From: a bacterium
Lineage (GTDB): Bacteria; Patescibacteriota; Minisyncoccia; Phycocordibacterales; UBA9973
Assembly: GCA_037127795.1 (NCBI GenBank)
Contig: JBAXXQ010000002.1
Location: forward strand, 11 to 64,010
Length of the DNA: 64,000 nucleotides
Direction of reading: 5' to 3'
Each line of letters opens with the position of its first letter. Position 1 is the first letter of the stretch. The translations under genes and the position numbers were made by a program. Shown here in pieces: positions 8,604 to 56,703 of this stretch. The notes below the pieces were generated by a model. The model did not search any database. It was not told the DNA's origin and saw nothing but the letters and a program-made list of their open reading frames with translations.

Positions 8604-9872
8604 ATGCAATCATTTCTAAAAAAACTAAAAATCTTATACACCGATAAAACTCTCCGTAATAAGATCTTGTTTGTAGTACTAGTGCTTGCTATTTTTAGAG
8701 TGCTCGCAGTGATTCCAGTACCTGGTATTGATACGAGTCGTCTCGCGCAGTTTTTCTCTGGTAATCAATTCCTCACACTCTTCAACACCCTTTCAGGGGG
8801 AGGGTTCTCACACTTCTCAATCGTTATGCTTGGGGTGGGTCCTTATATCACCGCATCTATCATTATGCAATTGTCATCTATGATGTGGCCTCGCTTGAAA
8901 GAGCTCATGCAAGAGTCTGGTGAAATTGGTCGCAAGAAATTCAATCAATACACTCGTTTGATTGCTGTGCCAATTGCATTTTTCCAAGGTATTGCATTTT
9001 TGCACTATCTTCAAACACAAAATGTAGTTGATACACTTTCTCTCGGCGCATTGGTAGGAAATGCAATCATTATCGTTGCTGGATCAATGTTGCTTTTGTG
9101 GCTCGCTGAGCTCATCAATGAATTCGGTATTGGTAACGGTACTTCACTTATCATTATGTCTGGTATCGTGGCTACTATCCCACAAAAGATTTCACAATTT
9201 GCATTTACCTATACTGCAGATCAGCTTCCTGTTACACTCTTGTATCTCGCACTCGGATTTATCGTTATCGCAGGAGTAGTATATATCTACGAAGCACAAC
9301 GCCCTGTAGAAGTAACCTACGCTCGTCAAGCTCGTGGTATCCGTATGTTTGGATCAAACGAAACATACATTCCACTTCGTCTTACACAAGCAGGAGTAAT
9401 GCCAATCATCTTTGCATCATCATTGCTTTTGTTCCCACAATTCCTCGCAAACTTCTTTGCAAATAGTACTTCAGCAAAATTGCTTGCAGTATCACACGCA
9501 CTTACTAGTTTCCTCCAAAGTAACTGGCAATATGCGATCGTATACTTCTTGCTCGTAGTATTCTTTACGTACTTCTATACTGCTATTACATTTGATCCAA
9601 AACAAATGGCAGAGAATTTGCAAAAGAATGGTGCATTCATCCCTGGTATTCGTCCTGGAGAATCTACTCGTGCGCACGTTGCAGATATTGTGACCAAGCT
9701 TACACTTGTCGGTTCTATCTTCCTTGGTATCGTCGCAGTACTCCCACTCATTGTTCGTAGTACTACCGGTATCACTGCATTTGCAGTCGGAGGAACATCA
9801 CTCTTGATTACCGTCTCTGTGGTTATCGATCTTATCCGCAAGATTGACGCACAAGTTGCAATGCAAGAATAA
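8604..9872 (+). CDS. secY: Preprotein translocase subunit SecY
   Basis: 422 aa with 10 TM segments and the conserved position after rplO. Confidence 0.9.
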   Translation: MQSFLKKLKILYTDKTLRNKILFVVLVLAIFRVLAVIPVPGIDTSRLAQFFSGNQFLTLFNTLSGGGFSHFSIVMLGVGPYITASIIMQLSSMMWPRLKELMQESGEIGRKKFNQYTRLIAVPIAFFQGIAFLHYLQTQNVVDTLSLGALVGNAIIIVAGSMLLLWLAELINEFGIGNGTSLIIMSGIVATIPQKISQFAFTYTADQLPVTLLYLALGFIVIAGVVYIYEAQRPVEVTYARQARGIRMFGSNETYIPLRLTQAGVMPIIFASSLLLFPQFLANFFANSTSAKLLAVSHALTSFLQSNWQYAIVYFLLVVFFTYFYTAITFDPKQMAENLQKNGAFIPGIRPGESTRAHVADIVTKLTLVGSIFLGIVAVLPLIVRSTTGITAFAVGGTSLLITVSVVIDLIRKIDAQVAMQE

Positions 9873-9876
9873 TATA

Positions 9877-9912
9877 AGAAAAAATTCCGCATTATGCGGA
9901 ATTTTTTCTTAT
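9877..9912 (+). terminator. Rho-independent terminator after secY
   Basis: Palindrome agaaaaaattccgcat/atgcggaattttttct. Confidence 0.6.
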
Positions 9913-9926
9913 GATACACTATCTCT

Positions 9927-10514
9927 ATGACAAACACTGTTTATATTTTTATTGGACAAAGCGGCTCTGGTAAGGGGACACAAGTACAGCTACTTGAGCA
10001 GACTATTCGCGCCCTTCATCCGAGCGATACTATTTTTCACTTAGAAACAGGGGAGAAGTTTCGCGAGCTTATAGAAGGAGAATCTTTCACTTCTCGCAAG
10101 ACAAAACAATATATCGATGATGGTGTATTGCCGCCAGCATTCCTCGGCGTGCATGCATGGAGCCATGTCCTCATAGAAGGATACACTGGCGAAGGGCATG
10201 TATTCCTCGACGGTACCCCTCGCGTATCTGCAGAAGTCCCTGCATTGCTTTCTGCTATTTCATTTTATGATTGGCACCCACATATATTCTATATCGATGT
10301 TGGCGATGCATGGGCTCGCGACAAGCTCCTCGCTCGTGGTCGCGCAGATGATACAGAGGCAGAGATCACTGGTCGCATTGCATGGTTTTATCAAAGTGTG
10401 ATGCCGGCAGTCGATATGCTCAAGAGCTCTCCACTGGTACAATTTCATCATATCAATGGTGAACAAAGTGTAGAAGCAGTCCAACAAGAAATTCTTTCAC
10501 ACCTTTCTATATAA
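9927..10514 (+). CDS. adk: Adenylate kinase, short form, with P-loop GQSGSGKGTQ
   Basis: Walker A GxxGxGKGTQ, the conserved position between secY and map, and a length of 195 aa. Confidence 0.8.
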   Translation: MTNTVYIFIGQSGSGKGTQVQLLEQTIRALHPSDTIFHLETGEKFRELIEGESFTSRKTKQYIDDGVLPPAFLGVHAWSHVLIEGYTGEGHVFLDGTPRVSAEVPALLSAISFYDWHPHIFYIDVGDAWARDKLLARGRADDTEAEITGRIAWFYQSVMPAVDMLKSSPLVQFHHINGEQSVEAVQQEILSHLSI

Positions 10515-10516
10515 GT

Positions 10517-11296
10517 ATGATATATATCAAGACCCCAGAAGAAATAGCACACCTCCGCGAGGCTGGCCCAATACTTGCTCGTATTGTGCAAGAAGTGGCG
10601 GGTATGGCTCGCGAGGGTATGACTACTGGCGAGCTCGACAAGATCGCTGAAGCAAAGATTCGCGACGCAGGTGCAACACCAGGACTCCTCGGCTACAAGC
10701 CCGAAGGTGCTCGCAAACCATATCCAGCGACTATGTGTATCTCGGTCAATGACGAAGTGGTACACGGTATACCAGGGAATCGCGTTCTCAAAAATGGCAA
10801 CATTGTGTCTTTTGATACCGTACTCAAATACAAAGGAGTTTTTGTAGATTATACGACGAGTGTCGGTATTGGCGCTGCAGAGGGCAAAGTAAAAAAGCGC
10901 GATATGGATCTTTTGAAAGTAACCGAAGACTCACTCTATGCGGGTATATATGCGATCAAAGCAGGAAGCCGTACAGGGGACATTGGGGCTGCAATAGAAG
11001 CCTATGTGAAGCCACATAGGCTCGGTATTGTCCGTGGCCTTTCAGGCCACGGCGTCGGCCGCCACATCCACGAAGACCCATATATTCCCAATTATGGCAA
11101 AAAAGGTAAGGGCGAGCTCCTCGTCCCTGGTATGGTCATTGCTATCGAGCCTATGATGACATTGGGCTCAGAAGACGTCCTCGAGCTCCGCGACGGCTAC
11201 ACCCTCGTCACAGACGACCACTCTCGCGCCGCCCATTTTGAACACACGGTACTCATAAATGAAGCAGGAGAAGCCGAAATTTTGACCCAAATCTAA
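10517..11296 (+). CDS. map: Type I methionine aminopeptidase
   Basis: Pita-bread fold motifs (HGIPG, the metal ligands D..D..H..E..E) and the conserved operon position. Confidence 0.9.
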   Translation: MIYIKTPEEIAHLREAGPILARIVQEVAGMAREGMTTGELDKIAEAKIRDAGATPGLLGYKPEGARKPYPATMCISVNDEVVHGIPGNRVLKNGNIVSFDTVLKYKGVFVDYTTSVGIGAAEGKVKKRDMDLLKVTEDSLYAGIYAIKAGSRTGDIGAAIEAYVKPHRLGIVRGLSGHGVGRHIHEDPYIPNYGKKGKGELLVPGMVIAIEPMMTLGSEDVLELRDGYTLVTDDHSRAAHFEHTVLINEAGEAEILTQI

Positions 11297-11322
11297 AGCC
11301 CTGAAAAGGGGCTTTTTTTGTT
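11297..11322 (+). terminator. Rho-independent terminator after map
   Basis: Reads agccctgaaaaggggcttttttt. Confidence 0.55.
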
Positions 11323-11328
11323 GGTTTT

Positions 11329-11694
11329 GTGGTAGAATTCTTATATATGGCTGACATAAAAGAGCTTACTAATAAAGTGGTAAAATTCCGAGACCAGCGA
11401 GATTGGAAGCAATTTCACAACCCCAAAGATCTTTCAATATCTTTGGTTCTTGAAGCAAATGAAGTACTTGAACATTTTCAATGGAAGTCACCAGAGGAAA
11501 TGACTATTCATGTAAAACAGAATAAAAAAGAAATTTCAAAAGAATTATCTGATGTTTTGTATTGGGTACTTTTGATGTCTCATGATTTAGATATTGATGT
11601 AGAAAAAGCTTTTCTTACAAAACTAAAAGAAAACGCAAAAAAATATCCAGTAAAAAAAGCGAAAGGAAGTCATAAGAAATATACTGAGCTGTAA
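11329..11694 (+). CDS. MazG-like nucleotide pyrophosphohydrolase (small all-alpha NTP-PPase, COG1694-like)
   Basis: 121 aa. The pattern R.W..FH...L...L..EA.EVLE.F...S.EE......E...EL.DVL..VL..S..L.IDVE.A matches MazG/YpjD-type house-cleaning NTPases. It sits 4 nt upstream of the next ORF. Confidence 0.65.
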   Translation: MVEFLYMADIKELTNKVVKFRDQRDWKQFHNPKDLSISLVLEANEVLEHFQWKSPEEMTIHVKQNKKEISKELSDVLYWVLLMSHDLDIDVEKAFLTKLKENAKKYPVKKAKGSHKKYTEL

Positions 11695-11697
11695 GAT

Positions 11698-13725
11698 ATG
11701 TCAAAGATAGAAACCTTTCCTTTTAATAAAGATAATTTTGATCAAATCAAAGACTATAAATTTGGTAGAAATTGGCCTGTTGTATATGTTATCGAAGATA
11801 AAAAGGAAGTGTATATAGGACAAACTGTAAATGCTTATTTTAGAAGTAAACAGCACGTAGAAAATCCAGAAAGAAAAAAACTAAAAGAAATTCACATAAT
11901 TACAGACGAGGAATTTAATGTTTCTGCTGCGCTTGATATAGAATCTTGGCTTATTCAATATATATCCGCTGATGGAAAATTTATTTTACAAAACGGTAAT
12001 GGTGGTTTAAAGAATCATAATTATTACGACAGACAGAAATATAAAACAAAATTTGAAATCGCATGGGATCGTCTTCGTGAAAAGGGGATTGTACAAAACA
12101 CTCTTGCTGATTTAAAAAATAGCGATCTATTTAAATACTCACCATATAAGTCTTTAACAGAAGATCAATTCCTTGTTGCAAAACAAATATATAAAGATAT
12201 TAAGAAAAATGAAATAAATACATTTATTGTAAATGGAAAACCGGGAACAGGTAAGACTATTCTTGCGACATATCTTTTTAAGTATTTAAAAGAACAAGAA
12301 GAAACAAAAAATTTAAATATTGGACTTGTTGTACCTATGGCTTCACTTCGTAAAACAATACGAAATGTTTTTTCAAAAATAAAAGGATTAAAATCAAATA
12401 TGGTTATTGGTCCAAACGATGTTGTAAAACAACAGTATGATCTATTGATTGTAGATGAATCACATAGACTACAAAGACGAAAAGGGATTATGGGGTATGG
12501 TGCGTATGATACTGTAAATAAAGGATTAGGTTTGGATAATGAGGGAACTCAACTTGATTGGATTATGAAGTCTTCTAAACACCAAGTATTTTTTTATGAT
12601 GAAAATCAGAGTATAAAACCAGCAGATATTCGTGCAGAAGATTTTAGAAAACTCAATGCAAAAAAATACACACTTAATTCTCAAATGCGTGTTGAAGCTG
12701 GGGAAGAATATATAAAATTTATTGAAGATATTTTTGATTTACAAAAACCAAAACACACAGCATTTTCAAACTATGACTTTCAAATATTTGATGAAGCACA
12801 AGAAATGGTTGATAAGATAAAAGAGAAAGATAAAAAACATAAGCTTGCCCGTGTTGTGGCTGGCTACGCATGGCCATGGCATACAAAACCTGGAAGTAGT
12901 TCAAAGCAAAAATATGATATTGGAATAAATGGATTAGAGCTTATTTGGAATTCTACAGCACAAGATTGGGTAAACTCGTCAAACGCTATAAATGAGGTGG
13001 GGTGTATTCACACAGTACAAGGATACGACTTAAACTATGTAGGCGTGATTATTGGTCCAGAACTCTCATATGATATCAAAAATAAAAAGCTTGTGGTTGA
13101 TAAGCAAAAATATTTTGATACTAATGGACGAAATGGTATTTCTGATCCTTCAGAATTAGAGCGATATATTATAAATATTTACAAGACACTGCTTACTCGT
13201 GGAATCATGGGAACATATATGTATATTTGTGATGAAAGTTTAAGAAACTATTTTAATGATGTTATAAGTCAAAAACCTGTAATAGAAGAAAAGGTAAAAG
13301 AGGAAAAAACAGAAAAAATAAAGTCACCATATACAAAAATGGTTAGCTTGCCACTATATGAATCTGTAGGTTGTGGAGAGTTGATGTTTGCAGATTCTAC
13401 AGTACAAGAAATGGTAGATGTCCCAGAAGAATTTGTTTCAAAGGGGTCAAAATATTTTGTACTTAGAACAGACGGAGATTCTATGGATAAAGCTGGAATA
13501 CATGACGGAGATCTTGTGCTTTGTCGAAAGGACTACCACCCCGAAATAGGGAACAAGGTTATCGCGCTTATTGGTGACGATGCAACTATAAAGGAATATC
13601 GACGCGACCCAGAAGGAAATGTAATACTTCGACCGTGTTCTACAAACCCAAAGCATAAAGATCGTATTTTTACTGAATATGATGATTTGAAAGTACAAGG
13701 GGTAGTGGTTAGGGTTTTAGAATAA
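11698..13725 (+). CDS. Three-domain protein of 675 aa with an N-terminal GIY-YIG nuclease, a central P-loop SF1/DUF2075 (Schlafen/Nhi-like) helicase-type ATPase and a C-terminal LexA/UmuD-family S24 serine peptidase domain. The product is novel.
   Basis: GIY-YIG: VYVIEDKKEVYIGQT..R..QH..E..N. Walker A: NGKPGTGKT. Walker B: LLIVDESHRL. SF1 motif VI-like: IHTVQGYDLNYVGVIIG. S24: the GDSM serine nucleophile and the ATIKEY lysine general base. A VGCGELM Cys-Gly candidate autocleavage site precedes the S24 domain. Confidence 0.7.
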   Translation: MSKIETFPFNKDNFDQIKDYKFGRNWPVVYVIEDKKEVYIGQTVNAYFRSKQHVENPERKKLKEIHIITDEEFNVSAALDIESWLIQYISADGKFILQNGNGGLKNHNYYDRQKYKTKFEIAWDRLREKGIVQNTLADLKNSDLFKYSPYKSLTEDQFLVAKQIYKDIKKNEINTFIVNGKPGTGKTILATYLFKYLKEQEETKNLNIGLVVPMASLRKTIRNVFSKIKGLKSNMVIGPNDVVKQQYDLLIVDESHRLQRRKGIMGYGAYDTVNKGLGLDNEGTQLDWIMKSSKHQVFFYDENQSIKPADIRAEDFRKLNAKKYTLNSQMRVEAGEEYIKFIEDIFDLQKPKHTAFSNYDFQIFDEAQEMVDKIKEKDKKHKLARVVAGYAWPWHTKPGSSSKQKYDIGINGLELIWNSTAQDWVNSSNAINEVGCIHTVQGYDLNYVGVIIGPELSYDIKNKKLVVDKQKYFDTNGRNGISDPSELERYIINIYKTLLTRGIMGTYMYICDESLRNYFNDVISQKPVIEEKVKEEKTEKIKSPYTKMVSLPLYESVGCGELMFADSTVQEMVDVPEEFVSKGSKYFVLRTDGDSMDKAGIHDGDLVLCRKDYHPEIGNKVIALIGDDATIKEYRRDPEGNVILRPCSTNPKHKDRIFTEYDDLKVQGVVVRVLE

Positions 13726-13726
13726 A

Positions 13727-13779
13727 AGAGTATAAAAAAATCCTTTTTATAAAGGATTTTTTTATACTCTTTTATTCAT
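13727..13779. terminator. Bidirectional terminator (perfect ~22-bp-arm palindrome) between convergent genes
   Basis: Reads aagagtataaaaaaatccttt-ttat-aaaggatttttttatactctt. Confidence 0.6.
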
Positions 13780-13787
13780 ATTTTTAA

Positions 13788-14003
13788 TTAATCTTGTTGG
13801 GTTATTTTTGCATTTCCCGTAATTTTAATTTGTGCATTTCCTGTTAAATGTATTCCTGTATTTTTTGTAACACTAGAATAATTACCAGTAATTTCCATAC
13901 TACCACCATCTGTTGATAGGTGTTCAATTTTTGATTTTGGTTGTAAACCAGAAACTAACCCCTCAGTAATACCTGCTGTGATAGATTTTAAGTATTCGGC
14001 CAT
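13788..14003 (-). CDS. Small hypothetical protein (71 aa) with ITGN-type short beta-repeats
   Basis: ORF convergent on the nuclease gene. The repeats are TGNAQIKITGNAKIT. No recognisable family. Confidence 0.3.
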   Translation of the reverse strand: MAEYLKSITAGITEGLVSGLQPKSKIEHLSTDGGSMEITGNYSSVTKNTGIHLTGNAQIKITGNAKITQQD

Positions 14004-14115
14004 ATTGATTTATTGTTTTATTAATCGGTTCGACTAGTCCGATAGGATAATAATACATTTTTACAATAAATACTGTCAACTTGTGAATATCTGTGGATTG
14101 TGTTAATATCTCTAT

Positions 14116-14847
14116 ATGTCTACATGGATTCAAAATAAGCGAAATATATCAGGGCTTTCTCAGGAACAAGTAGCAAAGACGTTGGGGATTTCACGTCCTA
14201 CATATATAAAACTTGAGCACGGGTTGAGTAAACCTACCGCACAGCAAAAAGAGCTTTTGGTGCAATTGTTTGGTGTCTCTACTGAAGCTTTTGAAAAAAA
14301 TGCTACAGAAAAAAAAATAAAAGAAGATACTATATATGAAGTATCTGTACCAAAAGAAAATATTGATAAATTTAAACAGGTACTTTTGTATATAGTGAGT
14401 AAGGTAGGGAGTCGTCCAAATATTGGGCAGACCGCTTTGTATAAATTACTTTATTTTATTGATTTCGATTATTATGAAAAATATCAAGAATACTTGATGG
14501 GGGCTACTTATATAAAAAACACTCATGGTCCAAGTCCTGTTTCGTTTGCAAAGATTGCAAGGGATTTAGAACATGCTGGTGAGCTTGTAGAAGTGCAAAG
14601 TAAGTTTTTCAAATATGATCAAAAGAAATATATTACGACTAATTCTCCTAATGTATCTACACTCACAGCACAAGAATTGCAACATATAGACGAAGAGCTT
14701 GATCGTCTTGCAACAAAAACCGCTCGAGAACTTTCTGATATGTCTCATATAGATACTCCATGGCGAGTAGCAAAAGAAAAAGATATTTTAAATTATAGGC
14801 ATGTATTTTATCGTCCAGATGAAACATCTGTGGTGGATAGTGAGTAA
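14116..14847 (+). CDS. HTH-XRE DNA-binding domain fused to a Panacea (DUF4065/SocA-like) antitoxin domain
   Basis: The N-terminal helix-turn-helix is LSQEQVAKTLGISRPTYIKLEHG. The C-terminal segment ALYKLLYFIDFDYY...HGPSPVSF is a PanA-type signature. Confidence 0.65.
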   Translation: MSTWIQNKRNISGLSQEQVAKTLGISRPTYIKLEHGLSKPTAQQKELLVQLFGVSTEAFEKNATEKKIKEDTIYEVSVPKENIDKFKQVLLYIVSKVGSRPNIGQTALYKLLYFIDFDYYEKYQEYLMGATYIKNTHGPSPVSFAKIARDLEHAGELVEVQSKFFKYDQKKYITTNSPNVSTLTAQELQHIDEELDRLATKTARELSDMSHIDTPWRVAKEKDILNYRHVFYRPDETSVVDSE

Positions 14848-14853
14848 TTATAT

Positions 14854-15189
14854 ATGCCCGAGTTTCATCAATTACCAGAATACCAAAAAGAGCTAAAAAG
14901 GCTTTCTAAAAAATATCCAAGCGTTTCTAATGATATAGAAGATATCAAACAAGTATTATTAGCATCTCCCACAGGAATAGGAAAAAATTTTACTATAATT
15001 TCTTCAGAGAAAGATATAAAAATTGTAAAAGTTCGTATTCAATGTGCTTCTTTACGAAGTCGTACTATCCGACTTATATATGCATACCATGCAAATACTA
15101 TAGAATTTATTTATATAGAGGTATATTTTAAAGGTGATAAGGAAAATGAAGATAGAGTAAGAATTTCAGAATATCTAGAAAATAAATAA
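14854..15189 (+). CDS. RelE/ParE-superfamily-like toxin (putative partner of the Panacea protein)
   Basis: 111 aa, 6 nt downstream of the Panacea ORF. The C-terminal pattern [26 protein letters not shown] resembles RelE/YoeB/HigB-fold toxins. Confidence 0.45.
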
Positions 15190-15190
15190 T

Positions 15191-15406
15191 ATGCCCACCC
15201 AACCCAGCAACCCACTTCAAGGAAAAACGCTAGAGACAATACTTGTGTTTCTTGTCGATATGTATGGCTGGGAGGAGATGAGTAGGAGGATACGGATCAA
15301 TTGTTTTGCGAATGATCCGAGTATCAAGTCTAGTCTGACATTTCTCCGACGGACACCCTGGGCTCGTAATAAAGTAGAGCAGCTGTATATCAAGAGTGTG
15401 GGGTAG
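15191..15406 (+). CDS. VF530/DUF2132-family small DNA-binding protein
   Basis: Reads [55 protein letters not shown], which matches the VF530 family consensus. Confidence 0.6.
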
Positions 15407-15410
15407 AACA

Positions 15411-15440
15411 CAAAAACCGGACTGTTTGTCCGGTTTTTGT
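15411..15440. terminator. Bidirectional Rho-independent terminator
   Basis: Reads aaaaaccggactgtttgtccggttttt. Confidence 0.6.
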
Positions 15441-15443
15441 GCA

Positions 15444-15677
15444 TTAGGCTTTTTTGAGAAATTCGGTGCGGAGCACGAGGCCTTTGACACCTTCGGCGCT
15501 ACACTCGATCAGCTCTTCGTCGTCTGAGAGGCGAATGTTTTTGATCTTGGTCCCTTTTTTGAGGGTGAGGTTGCTTCCTTTTACTTTTAATTCTTTGATT
15601 ACGGTCACACTGTCGCCATGTGCAAGAGTATTGCCATACGCGTCTTTGTGAATTATTACTTCTTCTATATCATCCAT
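15444..15677 (-). CDS. PhnA-like (PhnA C-terminal domain) small protein
   Basis: Reads DAYGNTLAHGDSVTVIKELKVKGS..TLKKGTKIKNIRLSDDEELIEC...GLVLRTEFLKK, a PhnA-domain consensus. Confidence 0.6.
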   Translation of the reverse strand: MDDIEEVIIHKDAYGNTLAHGDSVTVIKELKVKGSNLTLKKGTKIKNIRLSDDEELIECSAEGVKGLVLRTEFLKKA

Positions 15678-15754
15678 TGCTCTAGTATACGGATTTTGAG
15701 AAATAAAAAAAGTGCCGGCTGCACAAAAAATTTTCTAGTATAAAAAATACATAC

Positions 15755-17314
15755 TTGATATACTTGTACACATATATGAAAAAAATTATTTTGAGTTGTA
15801 TTTTTTTGTTTACTATCTGTATGGGTGGGCAAGTATTTGCTGCGAGCCCCACTGTCGCTATATCATTGGGAAGTTATGCGCTCTCTAGTGGCCAGACGAC
15901 AAGTGTTACATTTACATTTTCTGATGCGCCGCGAAGCTTCACTCTTGGGGATATCGCAGCTACTGGTGGTGTGGTGACAAACTTGGTAAATACAGGGAAC
16001 CCACTCGTATACACGGCGCTCTATACACCAAATACAAATACACAATCAACAGGAAATACTATTACCGTACACGCGCTCACTACAAATACTACAATCACTG
16101 GTGTAGGAAGTGGTCCTTCAGAAATGGCTTTTGATGGTACCAATATGTGGGTTGCAGATACGTATGATAATGCGGTGAGTAAGATCGCACCAGATGGTAC
16201 TATTACAAAATACACAGGCACAGGAGGATCGCCATATGCTATTGCTTTTGATGGTACCAATATGTGGACTGCTGATTATGATACAGACTCTGTGACAAAG
16301 ATAAGTCCTAGTGGGGTGATGCATACATATTTTGGTACAGGGCACCATCCCAATAGTATTGCTTTTGACGGTACCAATATGTGGACCGCTGATTTTGGAA
16401 ATAACTCAGTGACCAAGGTTACTCCTAGCGGTACAATGACTACCTATACAGGGACAGGACTACATCCACACGGTATTGCTTTTGATGGTACCAATATGTG
16501 GACCGCAGATTATGATGATGATTCTTTTACTATGATCGCACCAGACGGTACTATAGCGACATCATGGGCAAATGCAGGAAGTAATCCATTTGCTATCGCA
16601 TATGATGGCTCTCGTATGTGGGTGACAGATTTTGGAAGTAATACTGTTTCAAATATTAATACAACAACACACAGTACCAATACATACGCAGGGACAGGTG
16701 CCGGTCCATATGGAATCTCTTTTGATGGTACTAGTATGTGGCTTGCAAACTTTGATGGGGGAAGTATTACAAAAGTAAATACTGATGGTACGATGACGAC
16801 ATATACCGGCATGGGAGATTTTCCATATAGTACAAGATCTGATGGTCATTCTATATGGGTGACAAATATTTTCAGTAGTACAATACACAAACTTGGTTTC
16901 CTTGCTGAGACAAATTCTAATTCTTTTTCTGTAAATACTATACGACATAGTGGTGCGTACAACAGTGTGCGTGCGACATCGATTGATACAAAACCGCTTG
17001 ATTTTATTTTGAATAAAGGAGTGCTTGAAACAAAAGATCCATCTGTTTCTCTTGCGCTTAATGCAGATCCTGCGACAGTGTCTGGGTATGCGATATCTCT
17101 TGATGCGCATTTTGCTGGAGGGATTATTCATCCTTATGGAAAAAGCACCGATACCTATACATACGAGCTACCGCATACTCCTGGTACATATACGGTATAT
17201 CTCAAATATTTTTCAAAAACAGGGAATAGTTCAGAGGTTATACAACACACTATTTCTTATAATAAAAAAATAAAAATACCAAAAAAGGTAATAATAAAAA
17301 AGATTAAAAAATAA
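15755..17314 (+). CDS. Secreted beta-propeller-like repeat protein with about 7 repeats of the FDGTNMW(T/V)AD...V(T/S)KI.P.G..T.Y.GTG..P..IA module. It has a C-terminal beta-domain and a Lys-rich tail.
   Basis: Signal peptide MKKIILSCIFLFTICMGGQVFA. The ~45-aa tandem repeats are streptogramin-lyase/NHL-like propeller blades. Confidence 0.6.
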   Translation: MIYLYTYMKKIILSCIFLFTICMGGQVFAASPTVAISLGSYALSSGQTTSVTFTFSDAPRSFTLGDIAATGGVVTNLVNTGNPLVYTALYTPNTNTQSTGNTITVHALTTNTTITGVGSGPSEMAFDGTNMWVADTYDNAVSKIAPDGTITKYTGTGGSPYAIAFDGTNMWTADYDTDSVTKISPSGVMHTYFGTGHHPNSIAFDGTNMWTADFGNNSVTKVTPSGTMTTYTGTGLHPHGIAFDGTNMWTADYDDDSFTMIAPDGTIATSWANAGSNPFAIAYDGSRMWVTDFGSNTVSNINTTTHSTNTYAGTGAGPYGISFDGTSMWLANFDGGSITKVNTDGTMTTYTGMGDFPYSTRSDGHSIWVTNIFSSTIHKLGFLAETNSNSFSVNTIRHSGAYNSVRATSIDTKPLDFILNKGVLETKDPSVSLALNADPATVSGYAISLDAHFAGGIIHPYGKSTDTYTYELPHTPGTYTVYLKYFSKTGNSSEVIQHTISYNKKIKIPKKVIIKKIKK

Positions 17315-17641
17315 ATGCAAGACAACTCTTTTACTGACTATATCGTCTACGACATACTCGGGCATATTCCCGATATTCGTACCAAAAAAATGTTCTCAGG
17401 GGTGGGGATATATGTCGGGGATAGTATTGTGGCATTTGTCGCTGGTGGGGAATTGTATTTCAAAAGTGATGCAGCATTGGTGCAAAAATATACTGCGCTT
17501 GAGTGTCATCCATTTACCTATACCAAAAACGGTAAAGACATAGCGCTCAAGTATATGTCGGCGACGGAGTCTATGCTCGAAGACCGCGCAATAATGGAAG
17601 AGCGCATCGCGGAGGCTTTGAGTTTGAATAACAAGGAGTGA
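17315..17641 (+). CDS. TfoX N-terminal-domain-like protein
   Basis: Reads KKMFSGVGIYVGDSIVAFVAGGELYFKSD, which matches the TfoX_N pattern (MFGG.G.Y..G..FA.....LY.K.D). Confidence 0.55.
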   Translation: MQDNSFTDYIVYDILGHIPDIRTKKMFSGVGIYVGDSIVAFVAGGELYFKSDAALVQKYTALECHPFTYTKNGKDIALKYMSATESMLEDRAIMEERIAEALSLNNKE

Positions 17642-17647
17642 TATACT

Positions 17648-18076
17648 TTGGGTATGGAGGAATATAATATTTTTGATGCGTGGAACAGCGAAAAGAAAAA
17701 TATTCATGCGGCTGATAATACTACAGACTTTTTCATAAAGCCTCGTGAAATATGGTTTACGAAAATGGGAAAAAATATTGGGTATGAAGAAAATGGTAAA
17801 AAAGAATTTACTCGTCCGGTATTAGTTTTGAAAAAAGTAGGGAATTTATTTTTTACTGTAGCTCTAACAACTAAAGGAAAAGAAGAAAACAAATTTCATT
17901 ATAAATTTACCCAAGCGCATTTTACCGGGGAACACAAAGATCATGAAGATAGTTCTTTTGTAATTCTTTCACAGGCTCGTGTGATGGATAAAAAAAGATT
18001 TCAAGAAAAAATAGGATATATTGGCACTGAAGAATTTGAGATCATAAAACAGAAAATCACAACATTGCTATTGTGA
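17648..18076 (+). CDS. MazF/PemK-family-like toxin (CcdB/MazF fold)
   Basis: Reads REIWFTKMG.NIGYEENGKKEFTRPVLVLKKVGN...VALTTKGKE. The RP(V/A)LVL motif and overall layout match MazF/PemK mRNA interferases. Confidence 0.5.
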   Translation: MGMEEYNIFDAWNSEKKNIHAADNTTDFFIKPREIWFTKMGKNIGYEENGKKEFTRPVLVLKKVGNLFFTVALTTKGKEENKFHYKFTQAHFTGEHKDHEDSSFVILSQARVMDKKRFQEKIGYIGTEEFEIIKQKITTLLL

Positions 18077-18194
18077 TTTTCTGAAACTTTTTCCCTCCTC
18101 GTGAGAGGAGAAATCCCTAAGGACATTTGTATTTACATAATATACCACTTTTTATTGAGCGTCAAATAGTATGATTTGATGATATACTAAGTAT

Positions 18195-18599
18195 ATGAAA
18201 AAGAAGAATGCATATACCTGGTACAAAACCCTCAAAAAACCGTCCTGGGCGCCTCCACAATGGCTTTTTGGCCCGGTATGGACATTCCTCTATATTCTCA
18301 TTTTTATCTCATTTGGGGCTGTTTTTACGGCTTTTGGAAGGGGTTTGATACCGTTTTGGGTAGTACTTCCTTTTGGGATCAATATTTTCTGTAATGCAAT
18401 ATTTACGACACTGCAATTCAAACTCAAAAACAATCTCCTTGCTGCGCTCGATATCAGCCTTGTCCTTATCAGTCTCGTCTGGGCTATGTATGTAGTATAT
18501 CCGTACATACACTGGGTGGCGTATATGCAGATCCCGTACTTGGTGTGGGTTTCTTTTGCGACAGTGTTGCAGTTCACGGTGACATATATAAATAGGTAG
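18195..18599 (+). CDS. tspO: TspO/MBR-family (tryptophan-rich sensory protein) membrane protein
   Basis: Motifs [19 protein letters not shown] and [13 protein letters not shown] match the TspO consensus. Five hydrophobic segments. Confidence 0.65.
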
Positions 18600-18600
18600 T

Positions 18601-19131
18601 ATGGGAGATCTACAATACAGTATCAAGATACACGCGAGAGCGAGAGGGGTAAAAATTTCTATTCATGCAGATGGGCATATCGTAGTGACCAAGTCTCGTC
18701 GCGTATCTGATGCAAAGGTTGCAGAATTGGTCCACACAAAAAAAGAATGGATTTTTGAAAAACAACAAGAGATGTTGTCGCGTCCCAAAAAATATCTTGC
18801 ACACTATACCAAAGAAGATTTTTTACAATACAAAAAAGACGCACTCATACTCGCGACAAAAAAAGTCGCACAGTGGAATGCGATATATCAGTTTCCTATA
18901 CAAAATATTTCTATACGCAATCAAGCTACTCGCTGGGGGAGCTGTACCAAACATCGCTCTATTCAATTTAATTACAAAATAGTATTTCTTCCAGAATACT
19001 TGGTGGACTATCTTGTCGTACACGAATTGTGTCACCTCAAACAGATGAACCATTCGCAAGATTTTTGGGATCTCGTCGGAAAGACTATTCCAGAATACAA
19101 AACATATCGCAAAGAGCTTCAGTTGTATTAG
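18601..19131 (+). CDS. YgjP/DUF45-family metal-dependent hydrolase
   Basis: Reads HELCHLKQMNHSQDFW, identical in pattern to the E. coli YgjP HELCHLKEMNHS..FW zinc motif. Confidence 0.65.
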   Translation: MGDLQYSIKIHARARGVKISIHADGHIVVTKSRRVSDAKVAELVHTKKEWIFEKQQEMLSRPKKYLAHYTKEDFLQYKKDALILATKKVAQWNAIYQFPIQNISIRNQATRWGSCTKHRSIQFNYKIVFLPEYLVDYLVVHELCHLKQMNHSQDFWDLVGKTIPEYKTYRKELQLY

Positions 19132-19151
19132 CTCGGGTGTATACTATAGCT

Positions 19152-19640
19152 ATGCATACACACAATCATCCCATAGTCGGACACATACATCTCACCGTCG
19201 CAAATCTTGATCGCGCAATAGCGTTTTATGAATTGCTCGGTTTTACTATATCTGCACGATATGGGGAGTCTGCGGCATTTATGTCTGCGGGCGGATATCA
19301 CCACCACATAGGGCTCAATACGTGGGCGGGTACCGATGCGACTCCTGCGCCAACAGGGCACACAGGGATGTATCATGTTGCATTTTTGTATCCTAGTCGT
19401 CGCGCATTGGCAGAAGTATTGCAAAAACTTATTGATGCAGGATTTCGTCTCGAAGGAGCTGCAGATCATGGTGTCTCAGAAGCACTCTATCTCCGTGATC
19501 CAGACAACAATGGCGTCGAGCTCTATACTGATCGCCCCAAAGATACCTGGACTGTCCAAAATGATGGCATGGTAGAAATGGTGACCGAGCCGCTCGATCT
19601 CCAAAACCTCCTCGGAGAGCTTGTTGATCCGATTGTATAG
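19152..19640 (+). CDS. VOC-superfamily protein (glyoxalase/bleomycin resistance/dioxygenase fold)
   Basis: Reads GHIHLTVANLDRAIAFYELLGF. The start was moved to the ATG at 19152 to avoid overlap with the YgjP gene. Confidence 0.7.
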   Translation: MHTHNHPIVGHIHLTVANLDRAIAFYELLGFTISARYGESAAFMSAGGYHHHIGLNTWAGTDATPAPTGHTGMYHVAFLYPSRRALAEVLQKLIDAGFRLEGAADHGVSEALYLRDPDNNGVELYTDRPKDTWTVQNDGMVEMVTEPLDLQNLLGELVDPIV

Positions 19641-25320: not shown

Positions 25321-25445
25321 ATGTAAAAAGAAATTTGTAGTTTGTATATAAAAAACCGTATGTAAACTACGGTTTTTTATATATGTGATACTTCGCCAAG
25401 GCGAAGTCCTACAAAAATATAGTCGCGCTTTGCGCTCGTTATTTT

Positions 25446-25840
25446 TGTGGAGATGGGGGGAATCGAACCCCCGTGCAAGTATTGCCGATATATACATCTA
25501 CGTACGTAGTACATGTATATTGTTTTAAAATATATCAGTGCCCCGTGTACAGGAATGATATATTCGAGTCTTTATGTGTTCGGTGTCATCCTAAGACGAG
25601 GGTGACTGCCTACACTCAAAAAAATATTGCCAGTGTTCTTGTATTGAGCATCCAAGAATCTGACACCAGATTGACCTAAATTAGGCGAATGCTGGAGCAA
25701 AGCCAAATGCGTTAGCAAATGGAGACTTTACTGAACCTGAACTGTTTGCAGTTGTCGGTGTGGTTGATAGTTACAGAAGATACAACCATCTCTGGTACGC
25801 ATATATAGCGCGCAATACATGTCGATGCCTGTGCATCCCC
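25446..25840 (-). ncRNA. ssrA: Transfer-messenger RNA (tmRNA, SsrA). It has a tRNA-Ala-like acceptor with a G3:U70 pair and a tag reading frame ANSSGSVKSPFANAFGFAPAFA-stop encoded at 25684-25749 (- strand).
   Basis: The - strand 5' end GGGGATGCACAGGCATCGACATG resembles the E. coli GGGGCUGAUUCUGGAUUCGACGGG. The 3' end GGGGGTTCGATTCCCCCCATCTCCA-CAA gives a T-arm plus a 7-bp acceptor that pairs with the 5' GGGGATG through a G3:U wobble. The gene lies immediately downstream of smpB. Confidence 0.75.
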
Positions 25841-28843: not shown

Positions 28844-28917
28844 CCGCCTTTAGCTCAGTTGGTTAGAGCGCAGAGCTTATACCTCTGATGTCCATGGTTC
28901 GAATCCATGAAGGCGGA
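28844..28917 (+). tRNA. tRNA-Ile with anticodon UAU (decodes AUA)
   Basis: Cloverleaf: acceptor ccgcctt/aaggcgg, D-arm gctc..gagc, anticodon stem cagag/ctctg with loop cTTATAc (U33-UAU-A37), T-arm catgg-ttcgaat-ccatg, discriminator A. CCA is not encoded. Confidence 0.8.
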
Positions 28918-28948
28918 CAATATGTGGGGCAGATTGTCCTCTACTATT

Positions 28949-56540: not shown

Positions 56541-56616
56541 GAATAATATAGTGTGAGATTTCGTCACCCAGTAGGCGATTCTGCTGAATCGCGAATTACT
56601 AAGTTTTTTAGTATTG

Positions 56617-56703
56617 CGGAGGATGTGAGATTCGAACTCACGGGGCCGATTAAAGCCCGACGGTTTAGTAAACCGTTGATTTAAACCACTCATCCAATCC
56701 TCC
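56617..56703 (-). tRNA. Type-II (long variable arm) tRNA with discriminator G73, most consistent with tRNA-Ser. The anticodon loop reads UUACUAA, giving an apparent ACU anticodon (unusual).
   Basis: The - strand reads ggaggat-tg-gat-gagtggtttaa-atc-a-acggt-ttactaa-accgt-cgggctttaatcggcccc-gtgag-ttcgaat-ctcac-atcctcc-g. This gives a 7-bp acceptor, a 3-bp D stem, an 18-nt variable arm and a canonical TTCGAAT T-loop. The T-loop is canonical only on the - strand. Confidence 0.65.

Follow-up and report, generated by a model that had tools for sequence, protein, structure and literature searches.

Here we describe a two-gene operon from a bacterium of the lineage UBA9973 (Patescibacteriota; GCA_037127795.1, contig JBAXXQ010000002.1). 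The window, that is, the whole stretch of DNA analysed, comprises 64,000 nt of this contig (positions 11 to 64,010), and the operon occupies window positions 11347-13725 on the plus strand, with a predicted promoter of its own and a terminator at each end. Its first gene encodes a MazG-like pyrophosphatase, and its second (11698..13725, +) encodes a 675-residue fusion in which Pfam searches, alignments and an AlphaFold2 model identified a GIY-YIG nuclease, a superfamily 1B (SF1B) helicase of the DUF2075 type and an S24 autopeptidase. The reading that we favour, at somewhat less than even confidence, is that the pair forms a horizontally spread, defence-type nuclease-helicase with a partner acting on the deoxynucleoside triphosphate (dNTP) pool, which in the S24-bearing branch would be switched by RecA-stimulated self-cleavage. 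All features below lie on the plus strand unless marked otherwise.

The three-domain architecture, first proposed in a sequence-only reading of the window, was borne out by Pfam, family profiles and Foldseek. The AlphaFold2 model of the whole fusion has a mean predicted local distance difference test score (pLDDT) of 82 and a predicted template-modelling score of 0.70. The nuclease core spans residues 27-103 (11776..12006), as defined by conserved residues, PF01541 and profile comparison with the PDB. Taken alone, the fusion scores 18.9-21.4 bits against PF01541, below the cutoff of 22.6; thus, of the three Pfam searches proposed earlier, those with PF09848 and PF00717 exceeded their cutoffs, and that with PF01541 found its support at the level of the family. 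All of the 18 sampled N-terminal domains of diverse relatives match PF01541 at E<=0.01 (best 6.9e-10), and four relatives (P0175, P0264, P0266 and P0268) pass the cutoff. Furthermore, the N-terminal family profile retrieved only GIY-YIG nucleases among solved structures, namely T4 EndoII, UvrC, I-TevI and SLX1. Residues Y30, Y39, G41, R49, H53, E82 and N99 are fully or almost fully conserved among relatives with and without the S24 domain, down to 33% identity. The N-terminal domain is confirmed at family level as a predicted GIY-YIG nuclease.

The following segment, residues 151-525 (12148..13272), corresponds to an SF1B helicase/DUF2075 (SLFN group III) ATPase. PF09848 (SLFN-g3_helicase/DUF2075) covers residues 175-512 with 234 bits (E 3e-69), and Foldseek matched the domain to RecD2, Upf1, Dna2, nsp13, SLFN11 and SLFN14. 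The motifs quoted in the sequence-only reading were found in their expected places, with Walker A GKPGTGKT at residues 180-187 (12235-12258) and Walker B LIVDESHRL at residues 250-258 (12445-12471). One assignment had to be corrected: VQGYDLNYVGVIIG, which had been taken as motif-VI-like, is SF1 motif V (HTVQGYD; 13003-13038), and motif VI is TLLTRG with the invariant R501 (13180-13212). In the alignment of relatives, residues G180, G183, G185, K186, D253, E254, Q304, R331 and R501 are invariant. The second gene is therefore a predicted SF1B helicase of DUF2075/Schlafen type. A Lys/Glu-rich linker (residues 526-546, 13273..13335), which is variable in length and sequence in the alignment and predicted to be disordered (pLDDT <50), joins the helicase to the C-terminal domain.

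At the C-terminus, residues 547-675 (13336..13722) form a LexA/UmuD-type S24 peptidase. PF00717 matches residues 552-671 with 79.9 bits (cutoff 23.3), a profile search against the PDB retrieved LexA (3e-16) and UmuD (9e-13), and Foldseek superimposed the tail on the LexA C-terminal domain with a TM-score of 0.86 and a root-mean-square deviation of 2.4 Å. The nucleophile Ser595 lies within the GDSM motif (codon 13480-13482) and aligns with LexA S119 and UmuD S60, and the general base Lys632 lies within ATIKEY (codon 13591-13593) and aligns with LexA K156 and UmuD K97. The predicted scissile bond Cys559-Gly560 (13372-13377) aligns with LexA A84-G85 and UmuD C24-G25, and the 'PL(V/F/Y)' strand ahead of it is kept, with the pattern PL-x3-V/A-G/P-Cys|Gly. 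The cleavage apparatus recognised earlier from the GDSM serine and the ATIKEY lysine is intact: C559-G560, S595 and K632 are present in all 120 close homologues, and among the 19 S24-bearing clusters, which share <50% mutual identity, nearly all retain Ser and Lys together with Ala-Gly or Cys-Gly. The S24 tail thus looks cleavage-competent, and RecA filaments may stimulate its self-cleavage at C559-G560. It stays below the NCBIfam cutoffs for LexA (TIGR00498, 74.7 versus 110.95) and UmuD (NF007621, 64 versus 110), and is neither LexA nor UmuD proper but an S24 module joined to an enzyme.

In the clade of the Candidate Phyla Radiation (CPR), two types of S24 domain were found, xGCGxL and APCGxP. 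The two types are 40-50% identical to each other, whereas the nuclease-helicase parts are 78-84% identical over 120 clusters. We thus read the S24 tail as a module that is exchanged independently of the enzyme, and such allelic swapping is the behaviour that would be expected from a sensor module.

The first gene encodes an all-alpha nucleoside triphosphate (NTP) pyrophosphatase of 115 residues (11347..11694), of the DCTPP1/RS21-C6 type as judged by PF12643 and a phmmer search against the PDB. The MazG-type identity given to it earlier holds, with 62.1 bits against PF12643 (cutoff 27). Among solved structures it comes closest to mouse and human dCTP pyrophosphatase 1 (RS21-C6/DCTPP1; E 8e-19, 37% identity over 105 residues), with which it shares a C-terminal KYT(E/D)L tail. 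The metal-binding tetrad E-x2-E ... E-x2-D (E36, E39, E66 and D69) is intact in all 87 partner sequences, in which W20, H24, W46, Y100, K111 and Y112, aromatic pocket residues among them, are also invariant. DCTPP1 hydrolyses dCTP and prefers 5-modified dCTPs, and by analogy the substrate of the patescibacterial enzyme may be dCTP or a modified dCTP. The sequence-only reading had allowed the enzyme either a nucleotide-depleting or an alarmone-modulating role. Given its likeness to DCTPP1, a role in the dNTP pool is the more likely of the two, and the alarmone role is disfavoured.

The fusion is not a chance arrangement. Clustering at 90% identity gave more than 120 clusters of full-length fusions, 66-80% identical and mostly from Patescibacteria/CPR metagenome-assembled genomes (MAGs), and with clustering at 50% identity the fusion recurs in 19 of the 150 best clusters. 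Another 126 of these 150 clusters comprise the GIY-YIG and helicase domains only, so that the S24 fusion is a minority branch of the GIY-YIG-DUF2075 family. Some relatives without S24 are close, such as those at loci L026, L028 and L029, with 57-65% identity over residues 1-520. We compared 98 loci and counted the pairing only where both flanks were present. The MazG-like gene adjoins 34 of 35 S24-bearing genes and 38 of 44 genes without S24, mostly upstream, with a junction of -3 to +7 nt. The pairing is kept in a Bacteroidota MAG (L013, 38% identity), in Bacillus megaplasmids, in gut metagenomes and in the distant relatives P0121 and P0126. The pairing of pyrophosphatase and helicase is nearly obligatory across phyla. 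It characterises the whole GIY-YIG-DUF2075 family, and also a sister group of PD-(D/E)XK type, rather than the S24 fusion alone. The conserved unit is therefore the pyrophosphatase plus the nuclease-helicase, to which S24 is an add-on in some branches. The module suspected from the window is real as a pair and is not specific to the S24 fusion; since relatives without S24 keep the pairing, it is older and broader than first thought.

Several variations on the arrangement were seen. In a subgroup without S24 (L068-L070, L072, L075, L077, L079, L080, L082, L085-L087, L091 and L096) the order is reversed, with the MazG-like gene directly downstream. Several of these members come from human-gut metagenome assemblies, and several of the reversed pairs adjoin a PLDc_2-ResIII-Helicase_C-DUF3427 protein of about 985 residues and a Nudix gene. 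At L010 (3476-5499) the fusion is split into two overlapping open reading frames (ORFs) of 407 and 283 residues, of which the 5' ORF is 81% and the 3' ORF 55% identical to the window fusion; this copy is either frameshifted or pseudogenised, or a recombinant with the other S24 type. Some loci carry tandem DUF2075-type genes, such as L015 on a Bacillus plasmid (1513-3573), in which a 686-residue 'GIY-YIG nuclease family protein' stands beside a 560-residue DUF2075 gene.

The anatomy of the locus supports transcription of the pair as one unit. Upstream lies a secY-adk-map unit (8604-11296), which ends at an intrinsic terminator (11295..11315) found by a terminator scan and direct reading, with an 8-bp stem containing four GC pairs followed by a T-run. 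This terminator isolates the two-gene module from secY-adk-map transcription. Fifteen bases past it we read an extended -10 element, TGgTAGAAT (11330..11338), which is the predicted promoter; a similar layout, TTGaAAAA ... TGgGATAGT/TAGAAT at 6-10 nt before the ATG, occurs in L002-L009, L018 and L020. The ORF list opens the MazG-like gene at GTG 11329, the start used in the sequence-only reading, and homologues align solely from residues 5-13 of that ORF. Since the alignment begins at ATG 11347 and the -10 element stands 8 nt 5' of it, ATG 11347 is most likely the true start and replaces the earlier one. Given that the -10 element is so near to this ATG, the operon mRNA would be leaderless or near-leaderless. 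The two genes are separated by 3 nt (TAA gat ATG), not by the 4 nt reported before, and a perfect inverted repeat of 27 nt with a 4-nt loop (13720..13777, no strand assigned; 100% complementary in the repeat search and terminator scan) overlaps the stop codon of the fusion and is a bidirectional terminator ending the operon. The proposed co-transcription of the two genes is thus supported by the promoter, the 3-nt gap and the flanking terminators. Short ORFs of 51-83 residues on the opposite strand inside both genes are unsupported as genes, and Rfam detected no RNA family within or near the module.

We inspected by eye, without a motif finder, the 130 nt 5' of the pyrophosphatase gene at about 85 loci. 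No common palindrome that could serve as an SOS box was seen in these regions, only sigma-70-type promoters, nor was the Bacillus GAAC-N4-GTTC box seen by eye upstream of the module in L014-L016. Neither recA nor lexA was found in the 64-kb window, where the sole LexA-like stretch is the tail of the fusion itself. The constitutive-looking promoters and the absence of an SOS-like palindrome upstream would fit a post-translational control.

Composition and context suggest that the module moves. Its GC content is 0.318, compared with 0.446 for secY-adk-map and 0.385 for the window, and the module has a higher AT content than its flanks in 22 of the 23 loci examined. Relatives are carried on plasmids, including Bacillus megaplasmids, and the two-gene operon thus appears to be horizontally spread. 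SocA/Panacea genes stand beside the module in the window, L006 and L018, and ParDE stands beside it in L017. Proteins of the PLD-helicase-DUF3427 type lie near relatives at nine loci; such an association has been reported for McaZI-type modification-dependent enzymes (PMC6765204). Other recurrent neighbours of relatives are Nudix genes (11 loci), a TPR protein (7), C5 methyltransferases (6) and HNH_2 endonucleases (5). All-against-all clustering of neighbours gave no third generally conserved gene, only subgroup-specific partners. No att-like direct repeats flank the module within 10500-19500, and no integrase was seen. A phage origin was considered and set aside: at least five distant relatives without S24 occur in IMG/VR and few in GenBank phages, and the module is mainly cellular or plasmid-borne.

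Among known systems, Nhi (S. epidermidis SERP2475), Nhi-like and AbiO proteins likewise combine an N-terminal nuclease and a DUF2075 SF1B helicase in one polypeptide, and proteins of this kind are horizontally spread and often plasmid-borne, as here. PADLOC matched the fusion in its helicase region only, to AbiO (4e-15) and Nhi (1.4e-14); the Nhi model covers residues 141-473 (model positions 172-434 of 470). The kinship with Nhi-type DUF2075 proteins noted earlier therefore holds for the helicase region, and the N- and C-terminal parts show no sequence similarity to Nhi. Moreover, the nuclease of Nhi is of PD-(D/E)XK/HsdR type, whereas that of the fusion is GIY-YIG, and Nhi is a single-gene system without S24, whereas the fusion family is nearly always paired with MazG. 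By nuclease type and gene number, the fusion falls outside the Nhi system. PF09848 is counted as an Abi family in defence surveys, and Nhi and 'Nhi-like' (the latter of Millman et al. 2022) are DUF2075 nuclease-helicases with a demonstrated antiphage role.

The pair has a precedent of its own. Two 'Pyrophosphatase' constructs, SG192 and SG193, were shortlisted as a defence candidate by the Sorek laboratory (Millman et al. 2022, bioRxiv 10.1101/2022.05.11.491447, Table S2). SG192, from Bacillus firmus, comprises a 98-residue pyrophosphatase, which is 48% identical to that of the window (E 1e-32), and a 643-residue DUF2075 protein, which aligns with the fusion over the helicase domain only (26% identity, E 1e-14). 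Cloning of SG193, from B. thuringiensis, failed (Millman et al. 2022, Table S2). Unlike the window fusion, the DUF2075 partners in both constructs begin with a PD-(D/E)XK-like domain and lack S24. As a MazG-like pyrophosphatase gene adjoining a nuclease-DUF2075 gene, the window pair is of the same kind. Our literature search found no paper joining DUF2075 with MazG or with S24/LexA, and the pair only in the supplementary table of Millman et al. 2022. Hence the novelty claimed at the outset stands for the S24 fusion, of which we found no description in the searchable literature, and falls for the pair itself, which had been nominated for defence before and has given no positive result.

The S24 tail can likewise be set against its relatives. 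LexA, UmuD and phage cI have the same fold, Ser-Lys dyad and cleavage-site strand, and UmuD has the same Cys-Gly bond. S24 autopeptidases control repressors (LexA and cI) and one polymerase subunit (UmuD). The cargo differs: it is an HTH DNA-binding domain (helix-turn-helix) in LexA and cI, a 24-residue peptide in UmuD, and a 545-residue enzyme in the fusion. UmuD is a stand-alone subunit of about 139 residues and LexA has a winged HTH at its N-terminus, where the fusion has the nuclease-helicase.

These features enable us to propose a putative model. The module would act as a nucleic-acid-targeting system of the Nhi/AbiO kind, with the helicase loading onto DNA that is foreign or aberrant and the GIY-YIG nuclease cleaving it. 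The pyrophosphatase would act on the dNTP pool, with dCTP or base-modified dCTP/dUTP as its substrate, and might either starve phages that depend on such nucleotides or bar modified nucleotides released by DNA degradation from entering the host genome, so that the nuclease spares self DNA. In the S24 branch, filaments of RecA on single-stranded DNA (ssDNA), arising from DNA damage or phage replication, would stimulate the cut at Cys559-Gly560 and release the nuclease-helicase (559 residues) from the tail through which it dimerises and docks on RecA. Gating by the SOS signal would then be post-translational, not transcriptional via a LexA box. A RecA/LexA axis exists in these bacteria, since a related genome, the Paceibacterota MAG at L011, encodes a canonical LexA with a winged HTH, an IAAG cleavage site, GDSM and KKL. 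The cut may serve as a licensing step, by which the enzyme is released onto the ssDNA at the filament, and we lean slightly toward this direction over an off-switch. Damage-responsive control of other defence systems turns defence on, and SLFN11 is activated by damage; we counted both for licensing. A defence or mobility flavour is further suggested by the foreign GC content, the toxin-antitoxin (TA) neighbours, carriage on plasmids, the PLD-helicase-DUF3427, HNH_2, methyltransferase and Nudix neighbours, the similarity to AbiO/Nhi and the shortlisting of the pair.

Several points weigh against this proposal. For a defence gene, the conservation of the nuclease and helicase parts (78-84% identity over 120 clusters) is unusually high, as would also fit a repair enzyme. 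In the one construct of the pair that was assayed, SG192, the observed defence was 'x', that is, none (Millman et al. 2022, Table S2). Close relatives that lack S24 (L026, L028 and L029) make a simple 'autoinhibitory lock' model less convincing, since in them the core enzyme is tolerated unlocked. The neighbourhood check proposed earlier gave a divided answer: MazG co-occurrence was upheld, and the defence context proved mixed with housekeeping-type neighbours. Among 150 neighbours of S24-bearing loci, major facilitator superfamily transporters, TspO, aldo-keto reductases and a methyladenine glycosylase stand among defence-like genes, which include toxins, methyltransferases and PADLOC candidate families. 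Several neighbours recur among CPR loci (TspO in eight), which suggests partly stable chromosomal residence. Finally, what is proposed here of the RecA requirement, the sense of the switch, the target DNA and the pyrophosphatase substrate is all inferred.

The strongest competing explanation is an SOS-linked repair or fork-processing enzyme, whose S24 tail would dock on RecA filaments and be activated or released there, with the DCTPP1-like partner and Nudix proteins sanitising damaged dNTPs. We hold it to be unlikely on balance, and a serious rival all the same, as sequence does not settle between defence and SOS repair. It draws on the GIY-YIG profile matches to UvrC and SLX1, the LexA/UmuD likeness of the S24 domain, the classical house-cleaning character of DCTPP1 and Nudix enzymes, the high conservation of the enzyme, and housekeeping or repair neighbours such as the methyladenine glycosylase. 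SLFN11, a eukaryotic relative, acts at stressed forks, which also speaks for repair. However, the distribution is patchy, the composition is foreign in 22 of 23 loci, relatives are plasmid-borne, and associated genes include TA modules, methyltransferases and nucleases that are putatively modification-dependent; furthermore, the function-tested DUF2075 relatives (Nhi) are antiphage proteins.

A slightly less probable alternative reverses the sign of the switch. The S24 domain would dimerise a defence enzyme, bringing together two GIY-YIG sites that could make double-strand breaks. When the host's own DNA is damaged, the RecA-stimulated cut would turn the enzyme into an inactive monomer, so that ssDNA gaps and repair intermediates of the host escape attack. 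This has the precedent of LexA and phage cI, which cleavage inactivates by parting the functional domain from the dimerising S24 domain (PMC8565304). The viability of close relatives without S24 is in line with it, as their core enzyme needs no lock. In addition, the cut would expose -VAA, -AAA or -AAC at the C-terminus in non-CPR clades, ends similar to the latent ClpX signal of LexA. In the CPR clade, by contrast, cleavage would leave -VGC or -APC at the C-terminus, and the tmRNA tag encoded in the window ends in -APAFA; no degron similarity is seen, and the ClpX-degron argument is thus unsupported for this clade. Known damage-responsive defence regulators, moreover, switch defence on. A last possibility, that S24 is a non-catalytic dimerisation or RecA-docking appendage, or a protease acting in trans, with self-cleavage of no regulatory role, is improbable: S24 C-terminal domains are dimerisation modules and the model is of modest confidence at the cleavage-site strand (pLDDT 54-66, residues 541-570), but a purely structural role would not require Cys/Ala-Gly, Ser and Lys to be kept across clusters of <50% identity and in all 120 close homologues.

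Returning to the RecA-gated defence reading, a stronger form of it would make the S24 tail a direct post-translational RecA effector, in which the filament-triggered cut licenses DNA destruction on the spot and the DCTPP1-like partner protects self by keeping modified dNTPs from host DNA. We consider this form doubtful, about on a par with the repair explanation. If true, it would define a new class of effectors, immune or suicidal and 'autoprotease-gated', that need no SOS step at the level of transcription. It would also provide a bacterial counterpart of damage-triggered SLFN11 action, with mammalian relatives for both genes, namely DCTPP1 for the first and the SLFN helicase domain for the second. 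Mammalian DCTPP1 (mouse) is 37% identical to the window enzyme, with the catalytic tetrad and the KYT(E/D)L tail in common, and the fusion helicase falls in the Pfam family that takes its name from SLFN group III and matches the structures of SLFN11 and SLFN14. In mammals, however, the DCTPP1 and SLFN genes are unlinked, and SLFN has an RNase domain instead of GIY-YIG and no S24; a functional or evolutionary tie to them is speculation.

With an S24 switch attached to a 545-residue nuclease-helicase, a damage or phage-replication signal would be coupled to an enzyme in a new way, and transcription would stay unchanged. The DCTPP1-like pyrophosphatase with its nuclease-DUF2075 helicase is among the more tightly linked unexplained two-gene modules, and the pairing is found from Patescibacteria and Bacteroidota to Bacillus megaplasmids and gut bacteria. 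It connects dNTP-pool control with the bacterial proteins related to the Schlafen helicase domain, which are poorly understood. To our knowledge, few defence systems have been recognised in Patescibacteria, and a widespread one, if such it is, would be useful to know.

The surroundings of the module in the window hold further features. A 71-residue ORF (13788-14003, -), with no Pfam or PHROG match and not found in related loci, diverges from the next gene under a near-consensus promoter (14079-14050; TTGACA-18-TATTAT, 11/12). That next unit (14116-15189, +) consists of a gene of the HTH_3 plus SocA/Panacea antitoxin type (243 residues) followed 6 nt on by a 111-residue ORF, which has no family match and by eye is RelE/ParE-toxin-like; in L006 and L018 the module is followed directly by a SocA/Panacea gene, whose small partner ORF differs from case to case. 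Then come a VF530 DNA-binding protein (15191-15406, +), a relative of which lies near the module in L001, and a 77-residue ORF (15444-15677, -) with relatives near the module in L003-L005. A 142-residue ORF (17648-18076, +) is by eye like a family of about 130 residues in L002, L004, L005 and L025, and a 134-residue membrane ORF (18195-18599, +) resembles the TspO family found near the module in eight CPR loci. The recurrence of VF530, 77-residue and TspO relatives within a few kb suggests a loosely conserved accessory neighbourhood. Elsewhere, three neighbours of S24-bearing loci match PADLOC PDC-S41, with E down to 1e-286. In L011, the LexA ORF (1-1084, -) continues into C5 cytosine methyltransferase motifs (DLFAGIGG and GFPCQAFS) and runs off the end of the locus; if real, this ORF, some 5 kb away from the module, would encode LexA fused to a methyltransferase.

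The window also encodes a predicted secreted protein of 519 residues (15755-17314, +) built of 117-nt (39-residue) tandem repeats with the motif 'AFDGTNMWTAD', present in at least five copies that are 60-80% identical at the DNA level. A tmRNA lies at 25445-25840 (-), and its tag peptide ends in -APAFA rather than -LAA. ARAGORN further called a tRNA-Ile with the anticodon TAT (28844-28918, +) and a tRNA-Ser with the anticodon ACT (56616-56703, -), both of which are uncommon in bacteria.

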